DNA from: Planctomycetota bacterium
Lineage (GTDB): Bacteria > Planctomycetota > Phycisphaerae > Phycisphaerales > Phycisphaeraceae
Assembly (NCBI GenBank): GCA_039818285.1
Contig: JBCBUE010000020.1
Coordinates: 16,830-48,829 of the forward strand
Reading direction: 5' to 3'
Length of the DNA stretch: 32,000 nucleotides
In this document: positions 10,553 to 22,920 of the stretch, one piece after another
Layout: every line of letters begins with the position of its first letter
Position numbering within the stretch: position 1 is the first letter of the stretch
Made by a program: the position numbers and the translations under genes
The notes under the pieces: generated by a model
What the model was told of the DNA's origin: nothing
The model's input: the letters and a program-made list of their open reading frames with translations, nothing else
Database searches by the model: none

Positions 10553-10641
10553 AACCGCGTGCTCGTGGCGTGGAGTGGACTGGCGCGGACCGCACCCCGC
10601 CAACGGCTGACCGTCGGCGAAACCCGTAGCCTAGACACTGC

Positions 10642-11565
10642 TTGCACACCCGGCAACGCGATGCGTCGCGCCGCCCGATAACTCACCGATCCTTGACCGC
10701 CGAAACGCTCCAGACCGTCGTCGTCGCCTGCCTGGCCGGCCTGTCCGTGGCCGTGTTGGCCGTGCTGCGCGTGCACCGACCGCGACGCTTGGCCACGGCG
10801 CCCGACCGCCGGTTCCCGTGGGGTGTCGGCGTGCTGCTCGTCGGGCTGGCGGTTTTCGGGATGATGAGTTTCGCTTTTGGCGGGATGGCGATCTCGCTGG
10901 GGCTCGTGTCGCCGGACGACGCCGACCCGCCGCCCGCGCGGGTGCTGGCGGTCACGCTGCTTGGCCAGGCGTTGATCTATGTCCCGTTGGCGGTGCTGCT
11001 TGTCGGTCTGGCGCGGCGCGAGCCCAACGGCCTGCGACGGGTCGGCCTGGTCGATCGTCGATGGGTTCGTCACGCGCTGCTCGGCCTGGGCGGGCTGCTG
11101 CTCGTGCTGCCGATCATCTTCTTCACGTCGCTCATCGCGACCGCGATCACGGCGGCGCTGGGGGAAGCGCCTTCCGAGATCGCGCACGAGCTGCTGAAGA
11201 CGATGTTCGCGGCGCCGCCGACGGTGCGGCTGGGCTTTGTGGTCTCGGCCGTGGTGCTCGCGCCGGTGCTCGAAGAGCTGCTGTTCCGGGGGTTGCTGCA
11301 GACGACGCTGCTCAACCTGGCTCGCCCGATGCCGGCCGCGCCGCGTCGTTGGCTGGCGATCGGTGTGACGACCGTGGTGTTCGTGCTGGCCCACGGCGGG
11401 GTCGCCTCGCCCCACGCGCTGCCGGCCCTGACGGTGCTGTCGATTACGCTGGGCTATCAGTACGAGCGGACGCGCTCGCTGATCACGCCGATCGCCTGCC
11501 ACGCGGGCTTTAATGCGGTAAACATCGGGCTCGCGTCGCTGATCGTCTCGTCGCCGCCCGGCTAA
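10642..11565 (+). CDS. CPBP family intramembrane glutamic endopeptidase (CAAX protease-like)
   Basis: APVLEELLFRGLLQ (EExxxR), FVLAHG and CHAGFNAVN motifs with multiple TM helices. Start is uncertain: TTG at 10642 or TTG at 10693. Confidence 0.8.
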   Translation: MHTRQRDASRRPITHRSLTAETLQTVVVACLAGLSVAVLAVLRVHRPRRLATAPDRRFPWGVGVLLVGLAVFGMMSFAFGGMAISLGLVSPDDADPPPARVLAVTLLGQALIYVPLAVLLVGLARREPNGLRRVGLVDRRWVRHALLGLGGLLLVLPIIFFTSLIATAITAALGEAPSEIAHELLKTMFAAPPTVRLGFVVSAVVLAPVLEELLFRGLLQTTLLNLARPMPAAPRRWLAIGVTTVVFVLAHGGVASPHALPALTVLSITLGYQYERTRSLITPIACHAGFNAVNIGLASLIVSSPPG

Positions 11566-11578
11566 CCGGCCGACCGCC

Positions 11579-12655
11579 ATGCACATCGCCCTGCTCGCCA
11601 ACACCGCCTGGCTCGACGAAGAGCTCGCCTCGCTCCGGCAGCTGGTCGTCGGGCTGATCGACGAGCACGTCACGCTCACGCAGGTCGTCCCCGCGTTCAT
11701 CCCCGACGAGGACACCTCGCCGTTTGCCCACCGGCTGGACTGGATCGACTCCCGCTGGCGGTTCCTCAATCAGCGCCGGATCGCGGCCCTGCACCCCCAG
11801 CTCGCCGCCGCCAAGGTCGACCTGATCCACGCCCTGGACGGCCGGCTGTGGCCCGCGGCGGTGAAGCTGGCCGAAAGGCTCGACCTGCCGCTGCTGCTGT
11901 CGGCGTCGTCGGCGCACGACCTCTCGGCCGCCGCGCGGATCGTCCGCCACCTGCGGCCCGACGCGGCCGCCTTCACCGCCGCGACCGAGCCGCTCACGTC
12001 CGCCCTGCGCGCCCGCGTGCCCGAGTCGATCCCCGTGCACCTCGTCCCGCCCGGCGTGCACCGCCTCGACGCCTCGCCTCGACCGACCGATCGCCCGCTC
12101 TGCGCCGTGATCACCGGCTCGGGCCGGCACGACAGCTACATCCAGGCCCTGCTCGAGGCCCTGGCCCGCGTCATCCGGCGCGACCCGCAGGCGCAGTTCT
12201 TCTTCGACGGCCAGACCAACGATCAGCACCGCATCTGGCAGGCCGCCGACAAGCTCGGCCTGCTCCGTCACATCTCGCTCGTCCCCCGCAAGCTCGGCAA
12301 CCGCGACCTGCTGCTCCGCACCGACGCCCTGCTCATGCCCCAGCCGCTGGGCAAGGCACGCTCGCTCACGCTGCAGGCCATGGCCCGCGGCCTGCCCGTC
12401 GTCGCCACCGACGACCCCTGGCTCGACTACCTCATCGACGGCGAGACCGCTTGGATGCTCAGCCACCCCGAGCCCACCGGCTGGCACGATCGCATCGTCC
12501 ACCTCCTTGACTATCACGAGTCGGCCACCGCCATGGGCCACGCCGCCCGCGCCTGGGTCAACGAGCACCGCCCGGTCACCAAGCAGATCGACGCCCTGCT
12601 CGACCTTTACCGCCGCTACACCGGCCAGACGATCCCGATGGCCCAGGCGGGGTAG
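11579..12655 (+). CDS. GT-B fold glycosyltransferase (family 1/4-like)
   Basis: The C-terminal region ALLMPQPLGKARSLTLQAMARGLPVVATDDPWLDYLIDGETAWML resembles the GT1/GT4 nucleotide-sugar binding segment. ATG lies 13 nt after the CPBP stop. Confidence 0.55.
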   Translation: MHIALLANTAWLDEELASLRQLVVGLIDEHVTLTQVVPAFIPDEDTSPFAHRLDWIDSRWRFLNQRRIAALHPQLAAAKVDLIHALDGRLWPAAVKLAERLDLPLLLSASSAHDLSAAARIVRHLRPDAAAFTAATEPLTSALRARVPESIPVHLVPPGVHRLDASPRPTDRPLCAVITGSGRHDSYIQALLEALARVIRRDPQAQFFFDGQTNDQHRIWQAADKLGLLRHISLVPRKLGNRDLLLRTDALLMPQPLGKARSLTLQAMARGLPVVATDDPWLDYLIDGETAWMLSHPEPTGWHDRIVHLLDYHESATAMGHAARAWVNEHRPVTKQIDALLDLYRRYTGQTIPMAQAG

Positions 12656-16498: not shown

Positions 16499-16617
16499 TC
16501 GGGCCAACGCGCCGAGACTGCCTTAAAAGTAGGCAACTCGACTTGAATTGTGATCGATCGTGCGTCACCGCGGTCGATTTGGAGAGAGGCAACCCCCACC
16601 ACGGAGTTGATGCACCG

Positions 16618-18798
16618 ATGAGCGGCAAGCAAGCACGACTGGACGCCATGTCGGCGATCGCGGCCCTGGGTCCGACGCCCAGCACCTTCGATTTCTCCAC
16701 CGAGCCCACCGCCGAGGCCTGGGGCGAGAACGTCTTCAGCCTCAGCAAGATGGCCCAGCGCCTGCCCAAGGGCATCTACAAGTCGCTCAAGAAGACCATC
16801 GAGACCGGCACCGAGCTCGAGACCTATGTCGCCGACGCCGTCGCCGAGTCGATGAAGACCTGGGCCCTGGAAAAGGGCGCCACGCACTACGCCCACGTCT
16901 TCTACCCCCTGACCGGCCTGACCGCCGAGAAGCACGACTCGTTCTTCGACCCCGACGGCTCGGGCGGCACCATCGCCGAGTTCGCCGGCAAGAACCTCAT
17001 GCAGGGCGAGCCCGACGGCTCCTCGTTCCCCAACGGCGGCATCCGCGCCACCTTCGAGGCCCGCGGCTACACCATCTGGGACGTCACCTCTCCCGCCTAC
17101 ATCATGGAGAACCCCAACGGGACCACGCTGTGCATCCCCACGGCCTTCGTCTCCTGGACCGGCGAGGCCCTCGACAAGAAGACCCCCGTTCTCCGCTCCA
17201 TGCAGGCCCTCAACGCCGCGTCGCAGCGCGTCCTGAAGTTCTTCGGCAACGACGGGCCCTTCGTCTCGTCCACCGCCGGCGCCGAGCAGGAGTACTTCCT
17301 GATCGACAAGCACTTCTACTTCGCCCGCCCCGACCTCATGGCCGCCAACCGCACGCTGTTCGGCTCGCCGCCGCCCAAGGGCCAGGAGTTCGACGACCAC
17401 TACTTCGGCTTCATCCCCGAGCGCGTCCTCGCCTGCATGTTCGAGGTCGAGCGCGAGTGCTTCAAGCTCGGCATCCCGACCAAGACCCGCCACAACGAGG
17501 TCGCCCCCGGCCAGTACGAGATCGCCCCGGTCTTCGAGTTCGGCAACGTCGCCACCGACCACCAGCAGCTGATCATGACCATGCTCGGCAAGTGCGCCGC
17601 GAAGTACGGCATGGTCGCCCTGCTGCACGAAAAGCCGTTCGCCGGCGTCAACGGCTCGGGCAAGCACCTCAACTTCTCGATGGGCTCGGCCGCCGCGGGC
17701 AACCTGTTCGACCCCGGCGACACCCCGGCCGAGAACGCTCAGTTCCTGCTGTTCTGCTCGGCGATGATCCAGGCCGTCTTCCGCCACAGCAAGCTGCTGC
17801 GGGCCGTCGTCGCCTCGGCGTCGAACGACCACCGCCTGGGCGCCAACGAGGCCCCGCCGGCCATCCTCTCGATCTTCCTCGGTGACGAGCTCACCCAGGC
17901 CATCGAGGCGATCGCCACCGGCTCGTCCGTCACCGCCAAGAAGCAGGACATGAAGGTCGGCGTCGACGTGTTGCCGCCGATCCCCAAGCACTCGGGCGAC
18001 CGCAACCGCACCTCGCCCATGGCCTTCACCGGAAACCGCTTCGAGTTCCGCGCCGTCGGATCGTTCCAGTCGATCGCCGGCCCGCTGATCGCGATGAACT
18101 CGGTGATGGCCGAGTCGCTCAACGAGTTCGCCGACAAGCTCGAGGCCGCGGCCCCGACCGACCCCAAGGCCGTCGGCGACGTCGTCGCCTCGATCGTCAA
18201 GGACGTCTGGGGCGCCTGCTCGCAGGTCGTCTTCAACGGCGACGGCTACTCCGACGAGTGGCACGCCGAGGCCGAGAAGCGTGGCCTGCCGAACCTCAAG
18301 ACCACGGCCGACGCCCTGCCGATGTTCAAGACCAGGGAAGTCGAAGAACTCTTCGACTCGCTGGGTGTCCTCAGCCCACGCGAGCTCGAGTCGCGTTACG
18401 AGGTATACGCTGAGCAGTACATCGCCTCGGTCAACGTCGAGTCCAACCTCGTCATCGAGATGGTCCGCACGGTGATCTTCCCCGCCGCCGTCCGCTATCA
18501 GTCCGAGTTGGCCACCTCGCTGGCCAACCTCAAGGCCGTCGGCATCGAGCCGGACCAGGAGACCCTCAAGACCGTCACCGAGTTGATCGGCAAGCTGCAG
18601 GACGACACCAACGCCCTGGTCGCTCTCAAGGCCAAGGAAGAGGGTATGGACGACGTGGAGGCCCACTGCTATTTCCTCAAGGACGAAGTGCTGCCCAAGA
18701 TGCTCGAGGTGCGCGGCTATGCCGACGAGCTCGAAGGGCTGGTCGCCGACGACCTCTGGCCGCTGCCGACCTACCAGGAAATGCTCTTCGCCAAGTAA
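16618..18798 (+). CDS. glnN: type III glutamine synthetase
   Basis: At 726 aa it is the size of GSIII. The N-terminus [33 protein letters not shown] and the catalytic region [15 protein letters not shown]...[19 protein letters not shown] are typical. ATG at 16618 is preferred over the upstream TTG at 16543. Confidence 0.9.
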
Positions 18799-18826
18799 GC
18801 CTCGGCGAATCGGACACATGGGAGAG

Positions 18827-18859
18827 AAACCCGCGGCCTCGATGGCCGCGGGTTTTTTC
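18827..18859 (+). terminator. rho-independent terminator after glnN
   Basis: CCCGCGGCC (18830-18838), loop TCGAT, GGCCGCGGG (18844-18852), then a run of six T. A flanking AAA can extend the stem. Confidence 0.8.
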
Positions 18860-19107
18860 GTGTGGGCGCTCTGGGCGAAGCCGGGCGTGGGTGATGTCCG
18901 TTCGCGCAGGCAATACGCTGGGCCGGGCGGCGTTGACCCGGCCGGGATCGGTCCGCGCGGCCGGCGAGGCGTCGCACCAAGACACAAGGGTTTGACTTGC
19001 CGCCGGGATCGACGCGCTCGATAATGTGTTTCGCACCACGGCCGTCGCGCCTGCGCGACGCCGACATCGAGACGGGGCCGAGCCCGAGCCGTGGAGGCGA
19101 TGCGCCC

Positions 19108-21471
19108 GTGGTGCCACAAGACCCAACTCAGTTCGCCGCCCTGGTCCGCGACCACCACGCCATGGTGTACCGGCTGTGCTACCGCCGCCTGCGGCACCAC
19201 GAGGACGCCGTCGACGCGACCCAGCAGGTCTTCATCAAGCTCTTTGCCAAGGGCGACACCGTGCATACCGCCGTCGGCCCGTGGCTTCGGCAGACGGCGA
19301 TCAACACGGCCATCTCCCACCTGCGCTCGGAGATCACCCGTCGGCGTCACGAGCGGACGTACGAACCGGCCGAGCCGCCACGAGCCCGCGGGCCGATGGA
19401 GCACGACGAACTCAAGCGGCTGGTGCGCCAGTGCCTGGCCACGCTCGAGCCTCGCGACCGCGAAGCCGCCGAACGGCACCTCATGATCGGCGAGCCCCAG
19501 TCCAGCATCGCGGCCGACTGGGGGGTCACGCAGCAGGCGGTCGGCAAACGGATCCGCCGGGTGAAGGATCAGTTGCACCGCCATCTGCAGCGCGTGGGGG
19601 TGACCTCGCTGGGGGCCGGGATCGCGGCGATGCTGCCGACCCGGCTGGTCAGCGCGGGCGTCGCCCGGGCGATCGGGCTGATGGTCGGCCTCAAGCCCTC
19701 GCACGGGCTCGTTCCCGCCGCGGCCGTTGCGCTGCTCGCCCCCGCCGCACAGGCCCCCGACCGCCCGGCGAACTCCACGCCGACCGCGGCCGACGCCTCA
19801 GCCACGCCATCGATCGCCGCGGCCATCGATCGATCTCCCGCACGCTTCGCGGCCGACACGCCGACACCGATGCACGCCATCCTCGCGCCGCCGCCTCGCA
19901 CGATCCACGCCACCGCCGGCGGGTCGCGGCCCCCGGCCGCGTCATTCGGCGCCGGCACGCCGTTCACCACGACGTCGACGGCCCCGCGGCTCGGTCGGAT
20001 GCCGATAGCTCTTCCGCCCACGCACCGCCCGCCGCCGGCCAACGTCGCCCTGCCCGGCTCTCCACCGGCCACCGTCGCCTCGGCCGATCCCGATCGAGGC
20101 ACCGACACGACCCGCCCAGCCGCTCGCCGACCTCGGCCCCGGCTCGACCCCCTGCCTCAAACGCAGGCCCCGGCCCCGGCTCCCGCCGCCTCGCCCGTCG
20201 TGGATACGGTCGATCCGTCCGAACGGACCACACCGCCCGACACCCAGCCGGGGCTCGGCGTCCTGCCCGGGTGGCTCGCCTCTACGGTCGATCCCGCCCC
20301 GCCCAAGCTGGTCCGCGCGACGGTCGCCATCAAGGCGGACGCACGGGCCAGGAAAATTGCGTTTCTTGTCGACCGCCGGGTTGTGGCGGCTCGCTGGGCG
20401 GCGACTCTTGCACCGGACCGCGCGATCGCACGTGACGATCGCCTCGCAGTCAGCACCGGTCAGGAGGCGCCACCGATGTTCCCCTTGCACCTGAGAGAAA
20501 TCCTCCGCACACCCCTTCTCGCGGCCGTGTCGGCCTTGCCCGCCGCGACCGCGATCGCCGGCACGACCGTCGTCGACCCCGATGACGACGCCTATGCCGC
20601 CCTGCTGGACAACTCGGCCTACGACTCGGTCGGCATGATCACCGCCGGCAACAGCCTCGGGTCCGGCGTCTACCTCGGCGATGGCTGGGTGCTCACCGCC
20701 GCCCACGTCGCCGACGCGTCGGGCGATCTCACCTTTACCGTCGACGGGGTCGACTACGGCGTCAGCGACGTCTATCTCCACGACGACTGGACCGGCGACC
20801 TCACCACCGGCACGGACCTCGCGCTGATCCAGCTCGACGCCGACCCGGCGATCGAGGCGGCCGTCATCTACGAGCCGACGGTCACCGACCCCGTGAGCGA
20901 CAAGGACGCCCTGGACGGCGCGGTGGTCACCTTCGTCGGCTACGGCCGGACCGGCGACGGCGCGACCGGCGCGACCGGCAGCGCCGGCGAGAAGCACGCC
21001 GGCCAGAACACCCTCGACGCCTTCGGCGGCGACAACCTCCAGCTCCTCGGCTACGACGACAGCCTCTTCTTCGTCGACTTCGACGACCCCAACGCGACGT
21101 CCGACGGCCTGCGGTGGAGCGACGACGAGGCGCTGGCGCTGGAGTACCTCATTGCTCCGGGCGACAGCGGCGGCGGCGCGTTCGTGGAGATCGATGGCGT
21201 GACGTACCTCGTCGGGATCAACTCCTTCCTCGCGGCCACCGACGGCGAGGCCGACGCCGACTACGGCGACCTCGGCGGGCTGGTCTACGTCCCCGATTAC
21301 TACGACTGGGTCTTCGGCATCACCGGGGCCCTCGACACGGACCTCGACGGCCTGGCCGGGGTCGCCTCCATCCCCGAGCCGGGCCTCGCGGCCAGCATGG
21401 TGCTGCTCGCGGCCGCCCTCGGGCTCTGCCGACGACGCCAGCCCGCCACCCCCGCCCTGACCAACCGATAA
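19108..21471 (+). CDS. ECF (sigma-70 group 4) sigma factor domain + hydrophobic segment + Pro/Ala-rich region; the frame stays open into the downstream protease gene
   Basis: Region 2 is HHAMVYRLCYRRLRHHEDAVDATQQVFIKLF. Region 4 is LEPRDREAAERHLMIGEPQSSIAADWGVTQQAVGKRIRRVKDQL. GGAGG at 19093-19097 lies 10 nt before GTG at 19108; the maximal ORF starts at 18997. There is no in-frame stop before 21471. Confidence 0.55.
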   Translation: MVPQDPTQFAALVRDHHAMVYRLCYRRLRHHEDAVDATQQVFIKLFAKGDTVHTAVGPWLRQTAINTAISHLRSEITRRRHERTYEPAEPPRARGPMEHDELKRLVRQCLATLEPRDREAAERHLMIGEPQSSIAADWGVTQQAVGKRIRRVKDQLHRHLQRVGVTSLGAGIAAMLPTRLVSAGVARAIGLMVGLKPSHGLVPAAAVALLAPAAQAPDRPANSTPTAADASATPSIAAAIDRSPARFAADTPTPMHAILAPPPRTIHATAGGSRPPAASFGAGTPFTTTSTAPRLGRMPIALPPTHRPPPANVALPGSPPATVASADPDRGTDTTRPAARRPRPRLDPLPQTQAPAPAPAASPVVDTVDPSERTTPPDTQPGLGVLPGWLASTVDPAPPKLVRATVAIKADARARKIAFLVDRRVVAARWAATLAPDRAIARDDRLAVSTGQEAPPMFPLHLREILRTPLLAAVSALPAATAIAGTTVVDPDDDAYAALLDNSAYDSVGMITAGNSLGSGVYLGDGWVLTAAHVADASGDLTFTVDGVDYGVSDVYLHDDWTGDLTTGTDLALIQLDADPAIEAAVIYEPTVTDPVSDKDALDGAVVTFVGYGRTGDGATGATGSAGEKHAGQNTLDAFGGDNLQLLGYDDSLFFVDFDDPNATSDGLRWSDDEALALEYLIAPGDSGGGAFVEIDGVTYLVGINSFLAATDGEADADYGDLGGLVYVPDYYDWVFGITGALDTDLDGLAGVASIPEPGLAASMVLLAAALGLCRRRQPATPALTNR
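20476..21471 (+). CDS. secreted trypsin-like (S1) serine peptidase with PEP-CTERM anchor
   Basis: AGGAGG at 20462-20467 lies 8 nt before the ATG. The signal-like N-terminus is MFPLHLREILRTPLLAAVSALPAATAIAG. Triad contexts are LTAAHV, TDLALIQL and GDSGGG. The C-terminus is IPEPGLAASMVLLAAALGLCRRRQP. It is nested in frame within the long ORF above. Confidence 0.7.
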   Translation: MFPLHLREILRTPLLAAVSALPAATAIAGTTVVDPDDDAYAALLDNSAYDSVGMITAGNSLGSGVYLGDGWVLTAAHVADASGDLTFTVDGVDYGVSDVYLHDDWTGDLTTGTDLALIQLDADPAIEAAVIYEPTVTDPVSDKDALDGAVVTFVGYGRTGDGATGATGSAGEKHAGQNTLDAFGGDNLQLLGYDDSLFFVDFDDPNATSDGLRWSDDEALALEYLIAPGDSGGGAFVEIDGVTYLVGINSFLAATDGEADADYGDLGGLVYVPDYYDWVFGITGALDTDLDGLAGVASIPEPGLAASMVLLAAALGLCRRRQPATPALTNR

Positions 21472-21537
21472 CCGCTTCTCACGCTTGGCTTCCTCCTGGG
21501 TGCACGCCGTCCCTTGCCCCCGAAAGTGGACGGTGCA

Positions 21538-21572
21538 GCGCGGCCCGTCGTAGACGGGTCGCGCCTTTTTTT
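21538..21572 (+). terminator. rho-independent terminator after the protease gene
   Basis: GCGCGGCCCGTC (21538-21549), loop GTA, GACGGGTCGCGC (21553-21564, one G-U pair), then C plus a run of seven T (21566-21572). Confidence 0.8.
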
Positions 21573-21606
21573 GCGCGTCACCCATCGAGACGGGTAACGT
21601 CTGCCC

Positions 21607-22920
21607 ATGCGCATCGACGTGCTCACGCTGTTCCCCGAGATGTTCGCCGGCCCGCTGGGCACGAGCATCCTCAAGCGCGCCGCCGAGGCCGGCGCCGTCG
21701 GCTACTACCTCCACGACATCCGCGAACACACCGCCGACAGGCACGGCAAGGTCGACCAGCCGCCCTACGGCGGCGGGCCCGGCATGGTCATGCAGTGCCA
21801 GCCGGTGTGGGACGCGGTCGCGGCCGCCGATGACAAAGCGAAGCGCGACGGCGTGACAGGAACCCATCGCAGGATTTACCTCTCGCCGCAGGGCCAACGG
21901 CTCGATCAGGCGCTCGTGCAGGACCTCGCGGGTGTCGATCGGTTGTCGCTGATCTGCGGGCACTACGAGGGGCTCGACGAGCGCGTGCTCGATCGGCTGC
22001 GCGAGAGCGAAGACGGGTTGATCGACATCTCGATCGGCGACTACGTCCTCTCCGGCGGCGAGCTGGCCGCGATGGTGGTGATCGACGCGATCGTGCGGCT
22101 GTTGCCCGGCGTGCTGGGCGATGCGCGGTCGGTCGAGGACGAGTCGTTCAGCTCGACCCTCGACGGCGGCCTGGACTATCCGCACTACACGCGGCCGGAG
22201 GCGTGGGGCGGGCGGGCCGTGCCGGACGTGCTGCGATCGGGCGATCACGCGAAGGTCGAGGCGTGGCGGCGGGAGCGATCGGCCGAGCGGACGCGAGCGC
22301 GTCGGCCCGACCTCGCGGACGGCGGCGGTGTCGGCGAGGGCCGCGCGGCGGTCGTCGTGATCCGCGAGGCGACGCCCGACGACGCCGACGCGATCGCCGC
22401 CGTCCACCGCGCCGCGTTCGCCGCCAGCGCCCACGGCTACGCCGGCGAGGACGAGCTGGTCGTGGCGTGCGAGGCCGAGGGCGAGACGATCTTCAGCGAC
22501 GTGGCGACGGCGCGGGTCGGCGGGGCCGAGCGAATGATCGGGCACGCCATGTGGTCGGGCGTCGAGATCGCGGACCAGCCGGGGCGGCGGGGGATGCTGT
22601 GCGTGGGCCCGATCGGGGTCTTGCCGGGGTGGCAGGGCCGGGGCGTGGGGGCGGCGTTGATGGAGCGGGGGATCGCCCAGGCCCGCGACGCGCGGTGCGT
22701 GGCGCTGTTCGTGCTGGGCGACCCGGCGTACTACGGGAGGTTCGGGTTCCGGCCGGCGTCGGGGTTCGGGTGGACCAACCCGTACGGCGTCGATGCCGAG
22801 TTCATGGCCCTGCCGTTACGCGGCGAGGTGACCGATGAGTGGGCCGGCGAGGTGCGGGCCCGGGCCCGGTGCTTTCAGCCCGAGGCGCTGGCCGAGCTGG
22901 AGGCCCGGCACAGGGCGTAA
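21607..22920 (+). CDS. trmD: tRNA (guanine37-N1)-methyltransferase fused to a C-terminal GNAT (COG3153/YhbS-like) acetyltransferase domain
   Basis: TrmD motifs are MRIDVLTLFPEMF, DQPPYGGGPGMVM, LICGHYEGLDERV and IGDYVLSGGELAAMVVIDAIVRLLPGVLG, ending ...RPDL. With no stop, the frame continues into IREATPDDADAIAAVHRAAF...GPIGVLPGWQGRGVGAALMERG...LGDPAYYGRFGF. Confidence 0.85.
   Translation: MRIDVLTLFPEMFAGPLGTSILKRAAEAGAVGYYLHDIREHTADRHGKVDQPPYGGGPGMVMQCQPVWDAVAAADDKAKRDGVTGTHRRIYLSPQGQRLDQALVQDLAGVDRLSLICGHYEGLDERVLDRLRESEDGLIDISIGDYVLSGGELAAMVVIDAIVRLLPGVLGDARSVEDESFSSTLDGGLDYPHYTRPEAWGGRAVPDVLRSGDHAKVEAWRRERSAERTRARRPDLADGGGVGEGRAAVVVIREATPDDADAIAAVHRAAFAASAHGYAGEDELVVACEAEGETIFSDVATARVGGAERMIGHAMWSGVEIADQPGRRGMLCVGPIGVLPGWQGRGVGAALMERGIAQARDARCVALFVLGDPAYYGRFGFRPASGFGWTNPYGVDAEFMALPLRGEVTDEWAGEVRARARCFQPEALAELEARHRA

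Follow-up and report, generated by a model that had tools for sequence, protein, structure and literature searches.

Closest described systems

In the sigmaE/RseA/DegS/RseP system of Escherichia coli, an extracytoplasmic function (ECF) sigma factor is controlled by an envelope-side S1-clan protease, DegS, and then by an intramembrane protease. Here we describe a gene in which an ECF sigma factor and a predicted S1 protease are joined in one reading frame, found on the forward strand of a 32-kb stretch of DNA from a Planctomycetota bacterium (the window; contig JBCBUE010000020.1; 69% G+C). All positions are given on the whole stretch. The encoded fusion protein holds a sigma factor and an S1 protease, as the sigmaE cascade does. 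In E. coli, however, the cascade is divided among four proteins, and DegS is of the HtrA type and has a PDZ domain. Here both parts are in one chain, the protease is of a chymotrypsin/elastase type that lacks a PDZ domain, and cleavage is a proposal only. Taken as a whole, the locus is best explained, with a probability of about 0.7, as a nested gene that would give both a sigma-protease polyprotein and a separate secreted protease.

Nested starts are known from E. coli infB, cheA and clpB, in which an in-frame internal start gives a shorter C-terminal product. The fusion gene likewise has an internal ribosome site and start in the same frame, which would give a shorter C-terminal protein. In contrast to the products of those genes, which share function and promoter, the long product here would be a sigma fusion and the short product a secreted enzyme with an apparent promoter of its own. 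The C terminus resembles that of PEP-CTERM proteins, which were reportedly described by Haft et al. in 2006 as secreted proteins sorted by exosortase, in its PEP motif, hydrophobic helix and arginine cluster. PEP-CTERM pre-proteins usually begin with their signal peptide, whereas in the long product 456 residues of cytoplasmic type precede it.

Two described ECF sigma factors carry membrane-associated extensions in the same chain. IutY of Pseudomonas putida (ECF243) is a fused sigma/anti-sigma protein that is activated by regulated intramembrane proteolysis through Prc and RseP (PMC8999054). The fusion protein is similar to IutY in being one chain with an N-terminal ECF sigma factor, proposed membrane and extracytoplasmic parts, no separate anti-sigma gene and a proposed proteolytic release. 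However, IutY has a FecR-type anti-sigma domain and belongs to a cell-surface signalling system with a TonB-dependent receptor, whereas here no anti-sigma domain is detectable and the proposed extracytoplasmic part is a predicted protease. SCO4117 of Streptomyces coelicolor (ECF52) consists of a sigma factor, a zinc-finger anti-sigma (ZAS) domain, a membrane helix, a periplasmic proline-rich region and a carbohydrate-binding domain (PMC8999054). The order of sigma factor, membrane segment (a candidate here), proline-rich linker and extracytoplasmic globular domain is the same in both. In contrast, SCO4117 is actinobacterial, has the ZAS domain, ends in a non-catalytic carbohydrate-binding domain and has no nested start, nested promoter or sorting signal.

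The closest general precedent is that of Pinto and da Fonseca (PMC7671368), who described as scenario (d) how a planctomycetal sigma2-sigma4 unit enters an intergenic region and sequesters an in-frame downstream gene. The extensions in that study were recent, apparently fortuitous and non-conserved, and their function was left open. The gene described here matches this captured-gene type, with a sigma2-sigma4 core, a former intergenic linker and a complete in-frame gene with stand-alone homologues, in Planctomycetota; the assignment follows from a linker that cannot be aligned, a junction without codon-position bias and a protease module that matches more than 100 stand-alone proteins. It differs from the published cases in that the fusion is old, is in frame in at least seven lineages and keeps the captured gene's own expression signals. 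The initial annotation of the window, made from the sequence alone, had raised the possibility of a novel sigma/anti-sigma/protease architecture. Gene capture by planctomycetal ECF sigma factors was already described in general terms (PMC7671368), so that claim has to be qualified, although the S1 protease/PEP-CTERM partner appears to be new. Compared with PMC7671368 and the ECF reviews consulted, the deep conservation of the fusion, the captured expression signals inside the sigma ORF (open reading frame) and the existence of unfused divergent pairs also appear to be new. No report of a fusion of a sigma factor with a PEP-CTERM serine protease was found in the literature searched, which is not proof of absence. 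Neither nested genes that contain internal promoters nor ECF01-Gob/WD40 gave a hit in that literature.

The open frame and its relatives

The features of the coding region (position, strand, description) are the following.

19093..19110 (+): ribosome site GGAGG (19093-19097) and likely start codon GTG (19108), from the gene-caller product and orthologues
19141..19575 (+): ECF sigma core with region 2 (19141-19332) and region 4 (19417-19575), from Pfam and NCBIfam
19594..19755 (+): conserved post-region-4 segment, candidate membrane anchor (amino acids 163-216 of 787), from alignment and hydropathy
19756..20352 (+): Pro/Ala/Thr/Arg-rich linker, from composition and comparison
20353..20406 (+): internal ECF-type promoter-like element in which GGTTGTGG (20379-20386) and CGACT (20402-20406) stand 15 nt apart after an A/T-rich tract (20353-20372), from the seven-gene comparison
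20407..20475 (+): putative 5′ leader of a short transcript with AGGAGG (20462-20467), which also serves as codons of the long product
20476..20559 (+): internal ATG (20476) and 28-residue predicted signal peptide MFPLHLREILRTPLLAAVSALPAATAIA with an AxA|G cleavage motif, from the seven-gene comparison
20560..21369 (+): predicted S1 (chymotrypsin-fold) protease domain with His (20704-20706), Asp (20815-20817) and Ser (21166-21168), from Pfam and alignment
21370..21471 (+): predicted PEP-CTERM signal with IPEP, the helix GLAASMVLLAAALGL, CRRR, a short tail and the stop codon (21469-21471), from TIGR02595

The frame from 18997 to 21471 (+) is free of stop codons, as the initial annotation had reported, and remains open to the stop at 21469-21471. 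Read from GTG 19108, the ORF 19108-21471 gives a product of 787 amino acids. Its N-terminal domain is an ECF (group 4) sigma-70 family factor in which regions 2 and 4 are present and regions 1.1 and 3 are absent. Pfam Sigma70_r2 matched with 41 bits (cutoff 24) and the NCBIfam model TIGR02937 (sigma70-ECF) with 66.1 bits (cutoff 42.9) over model positions 3-164 of 165. Sigma70_r4_2 scored 19.2 bits, under its cutoff of 25.7, yet was correctly placed, and the Pfam search of the fusion protein gave no match to sigma region 3 or region 1. Compared with the locus L001, the sigma core had substitution frequencies of 0.10, 0.06 and 0.32 at the three codon positions, a bias that shows purifying selection in this frame.

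Seven fusion genes were compared, namely the one in the window and those in L001, L006, L086, L088, L089 and L090, and DNA was obtained for all of them. The six further homologues are 35-66% identical, come from genomes with 50-73% G+C and have the same parts in the same order in one frame: sigma factor, hydrophobic segment, linker, signal peptide, S1 protease and PEP-CTERM signal. One of the proteins, P0002 from another sample, has 794 amino acids, is 65% identical, is encoded by a single ORF and is followed by the same trmD-acetyltransferase gene. Five distant homologues (P0009-P0013) came from an exhaustive profile search; they have 762-913 amino acids and 36-43% identity to the window protein (alignment A4), and scored 420-474 bits, whereas stand-alone proteases reached at most 279 bits in the same search. 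A homologue search with a full-length alignment did not recover the fused homologues and listed the nearest sigma relatives instead, and a contig scan with sigma N-terminus patterns from a two-sequence alignment matched only unrelated sigma genes of Acidobacteria. The nearest sigma relatives carry other large extensions, for example WD40. NCBI annotates one member of the family, MEM9019854.1 from a metagenome-assembled genome (MAG) of Planctomycetota, as a 762-residue "sigma-70 family RNA polymerase sigma factor", a label that hides a secreted protease and a nested gene.

The initial annotation had named a stop between sigma factor and protease in relatives as the sign of two conventional genes. 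No such stop was found in frame 0 of the linker in any of the seven genes. The G+C content of each locus, the stops in frames 0, 1 and 2 of the linker and the chance of an open frame 0 were as follows.

Window: G+C 0.69; stops 0/1/1; chance 0.07
L001: G+C 0.73; stops 0/2/1; chance 0.07
L006: G+C 0.50; stops 0/11/14; chance 9e-6
L086: G+C 0.61; stops 0/11/11; chance 5e-4
L088: G+C 0.66; stops 0/9/6; chance 1.3e-3
L089: G+C 0.66; stops 0/7/4; chance 6e-3
L090: G+C 0.59; stops 0/9/9; chance 7e-5

Stops in either of the other two frames thus number 1-2 in the high-G+C pair of genes, and 4-14 in the remaining five genes. The linker itself is little conserved. It is 200-330 residues long across homologues, and its DNA could not be aligned between the window and L001 (45-50% identity), where the lengths are 603 and 600 nt. 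Its composition has a period of three in frame 0 (chi-square p = 2.7e-8 in the window and 1.4e-4 in L001), with about 57% C at codon position 2 in both. The contig L002 is identical in sequence to the window and was assembled independently from another run. The neighbourhoods of the fusion genes are unrelated, except in the trio formed by the window, L001 and L092, which indicates that the fusion gene persists as a unit. The fusion defines a family of predicted proteins held in frame in at least seven planctomycete lineages, and we consider it highly probable that the fusion is real and under selection.

Unfused relatives were also found. The Phycisphaerales MAG L091 encodes an unfused sigma factor of 354 residues that is 40% identical to the sigma part in the window and has the same post-region-4 segment, a lysine-plus-hydrophobic stretch and a tail of about 130 residues. 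Its gene is divergent from that of an S1/PEP-CTERM protease of 388 residues that is 50% identical to the protease in the window, and L009 has the same divergent layout. The link between sigma factor and protease in two gene arrangements speaks for a functional relationship that predates the fusion.

The best surviving alternative is that the fusion is translated but neutral, a fortuitous insertion of a sigma gene ahead of a protease gene. The sigma factor would then function with any tail, the only working protease would be the one initiated internally, and the long protein would be a tolerated by-product. Extensions of planctomycetal ECF sigma factors are documented to arise commonly in this way (PMC7671368), there is hardly any constraint on the linker sequence, every signal for independent expression of the protease has been retained, and neighbouring but unfused sigma and protease genes exist. 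This explanation is nevertheless unlikely because linkers of 660-900 nt have stayed free of stops and frameshifts in seven lineages that have diverged to as little as 36% identity, the chance values of the linkers multiply to far under 1e-10, and the gene has remained a unit across different neighbourhoods. Selection against stops in an otherwise unconstrained linker suggests, in favour of a selected fusion, that the covalent tie to the C-terminal module matters.

A promoter-like motif inside the coding sequence

When the 150 nt before the internal start were lined up in the seven genes, the sequence GGTTGTGG-N15-CGACT was found with identical spacing and at the homologous place in all of them (CGTCT in L001). 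The internal start codon follows it by 70-82 nt, and in most cases there is an A/T-rich tract in front of it. The copy at 20379-20406 is the sole match in the window, where 0.01 would be expected. Exact matches to GGTTGT-N17-CGAC numbered 15 in 101 kb of fusion-gene loci, compared with 0.05 expected, and 2 in 525 kb of other loci. Matches with one mismatch in L014 and L070 were rejected; they lie inside unrelated coding regions and are at chance level (about 1.2 expected).

Within the long ORF the motif is written in codons that are rare in this genome, with GTT making up 2.8% of valine codons and ACT 1.5% of threonine codons, and the surrounding 47 codons also include AAA, ATT, TTT and two CTT. 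Over the 33 codons from the motif to the internal start, the substitution frequencies relative to L001 were 0.27, 0.39 and 0.33 and thus without codon-position bias. The rare codons together with the missing bias indicate that the motif is conserved at the DNA level. The initial annotation had remarked that the stretch 20340-20475 looks intergenic though open. This was a correct impression, and the stretch holds the conserved promoter-like motif and a putative leader in rare codons.

Further copies of the motif are found in front of genes. Upstream of the fusion genes themselves, copies lie at 125 nt in L089, 74 nt in L006 and 56 nt in L086. Others lie upstream of autotransporter genes (74 nt in L088 and 52 nt in L006) and 84 nt upstream of an AraC-like gene in L088, and one in L090 is on the strand of a divergent TPR gene. 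In two unrelated genomes, a large autotransporter gene adjoins the fusion gene and has the motif in front of it (L088 2701-5546 and L006 3032-5801), which suggests that the autotransporters share a regulon with the fusion gene. In L007, a contig without a sigma gene, one of the two exact matches outside the fusion-gene loci (position 199) closely precedes a pair of small ORFs for PEP-CTERM proteins. A stand-alone homologue of the protease (50% identical) is encoded downstream of both, in the same orientation (199-2462). The divergent pairs carry a weaker version of the motif on the protease side: the spacer in L091 has CCTTGTAA-N15-CGACT on the protease strand, and L009 has GGTGGTAG-N15-CGACT before the protease gene.

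Two boxes at a fixed spacing are the layout of ECF promoters, and ECF sigma factors often use the promoter of their own gene as well. A two-box motif of fixed spacing 50-125 nt before starts, present upstream of the sigma gene in three of the seven cases, has the signature of an ECF target promoter, and on balance we favour the view that the motif is the target of this sigma factor itself. The motif could instead be kept as a protein motif (VV....AT) or as the binding site of another regulator, since in the ORF it does translate to a conserved V-V ... A-(A/T)-T peptide. We regard this as very unlikely, because the motif is found, equally spaced, in non-coding DNA 52-125 nt ahead of the start codons of other genes, its codons in the ORF account for 1.5-3% of their families, and fixed-spacing two-box layouts are typical of ECF promoters.

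The probable nested pre-protease

The internal start is ATG in six genes and TTG in L001, and would give a product of 331 amino acids in the window. It is preceded at 5-9 nt by GGAG or GAGG in all seven genes, in varied amino-acid contexts and against a background of 4-7%; the AGGAGG at 20462-20467 and the ATG at 20476 were both already placed correctly in the initial annotation. All seven proteins have the motif A-x-A-G-(T/V)-(T/I)-(V/I), and the distance to it from the start is 23-29 residues, or 27-29 if only six of them are counted. The N terminus of the 331-residue product has a basic n-region, a hydrophobic core and AxA|G, and would form a signal peptide that is internal in the 787-residue product, where it is the most hydrophobic stretch of the protein (Kyte-Doolittle 1.71). 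More than 100 stand-alone S1 homologues of 300-380 amino acids begin exactly at this signal peptide and have a PEP-CTERM-type tail. The RNA structure of the putative short-transcript leader gave Z-scores of -1.5 to +0.8 at the seven loci, which is no evidence of a sequestered ribosome site.

The predicted protease domain and the C-terminal signal proposed in the initial annotation were both supported by profile matches. Pfam Trypsin scored 44.6 bits (cutoff 20.6) and Trypsin_2 28.8 bits (cutoff 27.6), and there is a weak sequence match to elastase 1elt (E = 6e-6). The residues H533, D570 and S687, with the TAAHV and GDSGG motifs, are invariant in the seven homologues. With a triad in the order His, Asp, Ser and the GDSGG motif, the C-terminal domain is a predicted member of peptidase family S1. 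Its substitution frequencies by codon position relative to L001 were 0.12, 0.11 and 0.25. The TIGR02595 score for the PEP-CTERM signal was 17 bits against a cutoff of 16, a marginal pass; P756, E757, R775 and R776 are invariant, and the second proline of the PEP motif is present in six of the seven. No exosortase (EpsH/XrtA family) gene and no site-2 protease gene was found within the window. The protease of P0010 (L088) and that of L091 share an insertion of about 60-80 residues, rich in Gly, Phe and Arg, between the parts with the Asp and the Ser, which the window protein does not have.

From these internal signals, the protease is probably expressed separately. If only the long polyprotein were made, the internal ribosome site, ATG and signal peptide would be relics and the hydrophobic part would serve as a signal anchor or a cleavage site. 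The internal segment is indeed the most hydrophobic one and would insert in the long form too. However, the start is kept at a fixed distance from the cleavage motif in seven of seven lineages, and all seven keep the ribosome site in varying amino-acid contexts as well as the promoter-like motif in rare codons, which leaves this alternative with a very small share of the probability.

Start codon and third-position composition

In the initial annotation the ORF begins at 18997. Read from the TTG at that position, it would give 824 amino acids within a stop-to-stop span of 18937..21471. This TTG, however, forms the first bases of a -35 hexamer and is not a start codon, and GTG 19108 is the likely start of the long product. 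The gene-caller product P0001 on the identical contig L002 has 787 amino acids and begins at GTG 19108, and both L001 and L092 keep the GGAGG and the GTG start. Exact look-ups of the 824-residue and 331-residue products gave no match; the gene caller used GTG 19108.

The decay in third-position G+C (GC3) before 20475 that had been noticed earlier was found on measurement as a dip. In frame, GC3 is 0.8-1.0 up to about 20346, 0.62-0.72 over 20347-20526 and then again at least 0.9. When the 720 nt of linker and junction were shuffled, 7% of the shuffles remained open. Long ORFs in other frames, together with these open shuffles, make openness alone weak evidence in DNA with 69% G+C, and it is the comparison with relatives that lends it significance. 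Two such ORFs overlap the fusion gene, one of 867 amino acids at 19942-22545 (-) and one of 469 amino acids at 19026-20435 (+, another frame), and both are chance products of the high G+C.

The idea that this genome alone has two ordinary genes, joined by an indel error in sequencing or assembly or by a very recent loss of the upstream stop (two of the three readings in the initial annotation), can be dismissed: the G+C content, the antisense ORF of 867 residues, the 7% of open shuffles and the GC3 dip ahead of the protease start speak for it, but the identical L002 assembly from another run and the continuous frame in six other lineages (the 65%-identical orthologue and five distant homologues, with chance openness of 9e-6 to 5e-4 at 50-61% G+C and about 9e-6 in the genome with 50% G+C) exclude sequencing error and recent stop loss, and the linker has an in-frame period-3 composition. 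The third reading, a genuine sigma-linker-protease polyprotein with an internal second start, is the one supported by the seven open-frame homologues with internal signals.

Candidate membrane segment and topology

The segment after region 4 has the motif GI.SLGAA.AA.LP.R...AG, then K..K and finally a few hydrophobic residues in a row. With 76% identity to L001 and substitution frequencies of 0.10, 0.14 and 0.45 by codon position, the segment is as constrained as the sigma core, and G164, L168, A170, A173, P177 and A183 are invariant across the seven homologues (pattern G..SL.A..A...P.....A). Its Kyte-Doolittle maxima are 1.37-1.81, similar to the 1.20-1.64 for the PEP-CTERM helix of the same proteins. 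Wider sigma relatives with other extensions have a clear membrane helix slightly further downstream. No anti-sigma gene is conserved beside any member of the fusion family, and none lies within the window. AlphaFold2 predicted the linker to be disordered, with a predicted local distance difference test (pLDDT) score of 23-30 and no secondary structure.

Two topologies are possible. In the first, the post-region-4 segment would span the membrane as in the relatives, and linker and protease would be periplasmic. In the second, the post-region-4 segment would not be in the membrane and the internal signal peptide would act as a signal anchor; signal peptidase could then release the protease and leave a tail-anchored sigma factor for an intramembrane protease.

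Proposed working

In the nested-gene explanation, the long sigma-protease protein would be made from the upstream housekeeping-type promoter. Activity of the sigma factor would then add the short secreted form, for which the internal promoter and start codon would be used. After export, the short pre-protease would be cut behind AxA, and its PEP-CTERM tail would direct its sorting. More free protease, and more of the secreted proteins encoded nearby, would thus be made when the sigma factor is active. The proteolysis-linked envelope signalling that the initial annotation suggested is a plausible function. The C-terminal extension of the long form may keep the sigma factor at the membrane, with either the post-region-4 segment or the internal signal peptide as the anchor. 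Proteolysis could then free the membrane-held sigma factor, similarly to IutY and SCO4117, and the S1 protease would be built into the sensor arm. Such tethering with proteolytic release is put forward tentatively and by analogy. Holding the sigma factor at the membrane until proteolysis would also be the simplest reason for the covalent tie, although we give this slightly less than an even chance.

A stronger version, in which the 787-residue protein is an entire envelope-signalling cascade by itself and includes a feed-forward loop, can be imagined but is rather unlikely. Here the sigma factor would be tethered to the membrane, the protein's own extracytoplasmic S1 domain, or the free protease acting in trans, would make the first cut in the disordered linker, and an intramembrane protease would then free the sigma factor. 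The sigma factor would fire the promoter inside its own coding sequence and the neighbouring autotransporter and PEP-CTERM promoters, and the outcome would be a free, exosortase-sorted protease. If true, the cascade would amount to sigmaE, RseA and DegS merged in one gene that also contains its target gene.

Several observations weigh against the nested-gene explanation or the tethering attached to it. The homologue search ranks fused proteins ahead of unfused ones. A copy of the motif ahead of the sigma start was looked for in the window and in L001 and found in neither, and autoregulation is thus not universal. The argument that this sigma factor recognizes the motif, which we consider only somewhat better than even, is one of co-occurrence only. 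No anti-sigma domain of the FecR, ZAS or RskA type was found by Pfam or NCBIfam between region 4 and the protease, where there is only the conserved segment specific to the family. If the post-region-4 segment and the internal signal peptide both spanned the membrane, the protease would be cytoplasmic, at odds with its PEP-CTERM tail. Hydropathy and charge do not separate the two topologies: the net charge of the linker ranges from +18 to -6 and is not consistently positive. The AlphaFold2 model from the seven-sequence alignment, in which the sigma core and parts of the protease only were modelled, is of low quality (mean pLDDT 43) and gives no information about topology or interdomain contacts.

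Large C-terminal extensions are common among the ECF sigma factors of Planctomycetes. The family offers a clean test case for such extensions, as the captured gene is intact and the frame has been kept through deep divergence, an apparent sigma target promoter, a ribosome site and a start lie inside the sigma frame, and unfused pairs are available for comparison. One stretch of DNA would serve as coding sequence, promoter and leader at once. The locus also provides a testable link from a sigma factor, through the motif GGTTGTGG-N15-CGACT, to a small regulon in which the proteins are secreted.

Transcription unit and flanking genes

Outside the coding region, three features delimit or precede the gene.

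18997..19025 (+): predicted sigma-70-type promoter TTGCCG-17-GATAAT, from the promoter scan and orthologues
19044..19059 (+): perfect palindrome GTCGCGC-CT-GCGCGAC in the 5′ leader, read from the sequence
21538..21574 (+): predicted intrinsic terminator with a 12-bp stem and then a T run, from the terminator scan

TTGCCG-17-GATAAT is the sole promoter-like site in 18700-21700, with 0.0 expected in shuffles, and has counterparts in L001 (TTGCCC-17-GATAAT) and L092 (TTGTTG-17-CATACT). The leader (19030-19107) is about 85% identical to that of L001, a conservation equal to or higher than that of the coding sequence. The palindrome reads GTCGCGC-CC-GCGCGAC in L001 and only part of it is kept in L092; it could be an operator for a repressor or form an RNA hairpin. 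The terminator is likewise the sole terminator-like site in 18700-21700, so there is none between the sigma and protease parts. With the promoter at 18997-19025 and the terminator at 21538-21574, the locus is predicted to be one transcription unit. A search of 18700-21700 against Rfam gave no match at threshold. In the 3′ untranslated DNA, 21499-21570 shares about 85% identity with L001, a value that much of the coding sequence does not reach, and has a hairpin CCGTCC...GGACGG ahead of the terminator stem (21538-21564).

Upstream, a stem-loop with a T run at 18829-18857 (CCCGCGGCC-TCGAT-GGCCGCGGG-TTTTTT) follows a type III glutamine synthetase gene (16543-18798) and separates the sigma unit from it. 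It looks like the terminator of that gene and is absent from the terminator-scan list. At 10630-12655 the window has a gene for an Rce1-like intramembrane protease of the CAAX type and directly after it one for a group 1 glycosyltransferase, with no evident link to the fusion. Downstream of the fusion gene, 21607-22920 (2780-4093 in L001) encodes a protein of 437 amino acids in which TrmD, a tRNA m1G37 methyltransferase, is fused to a C-terminal GNAT acetyltransferase, and this gene is conserved in the orthologous locus.

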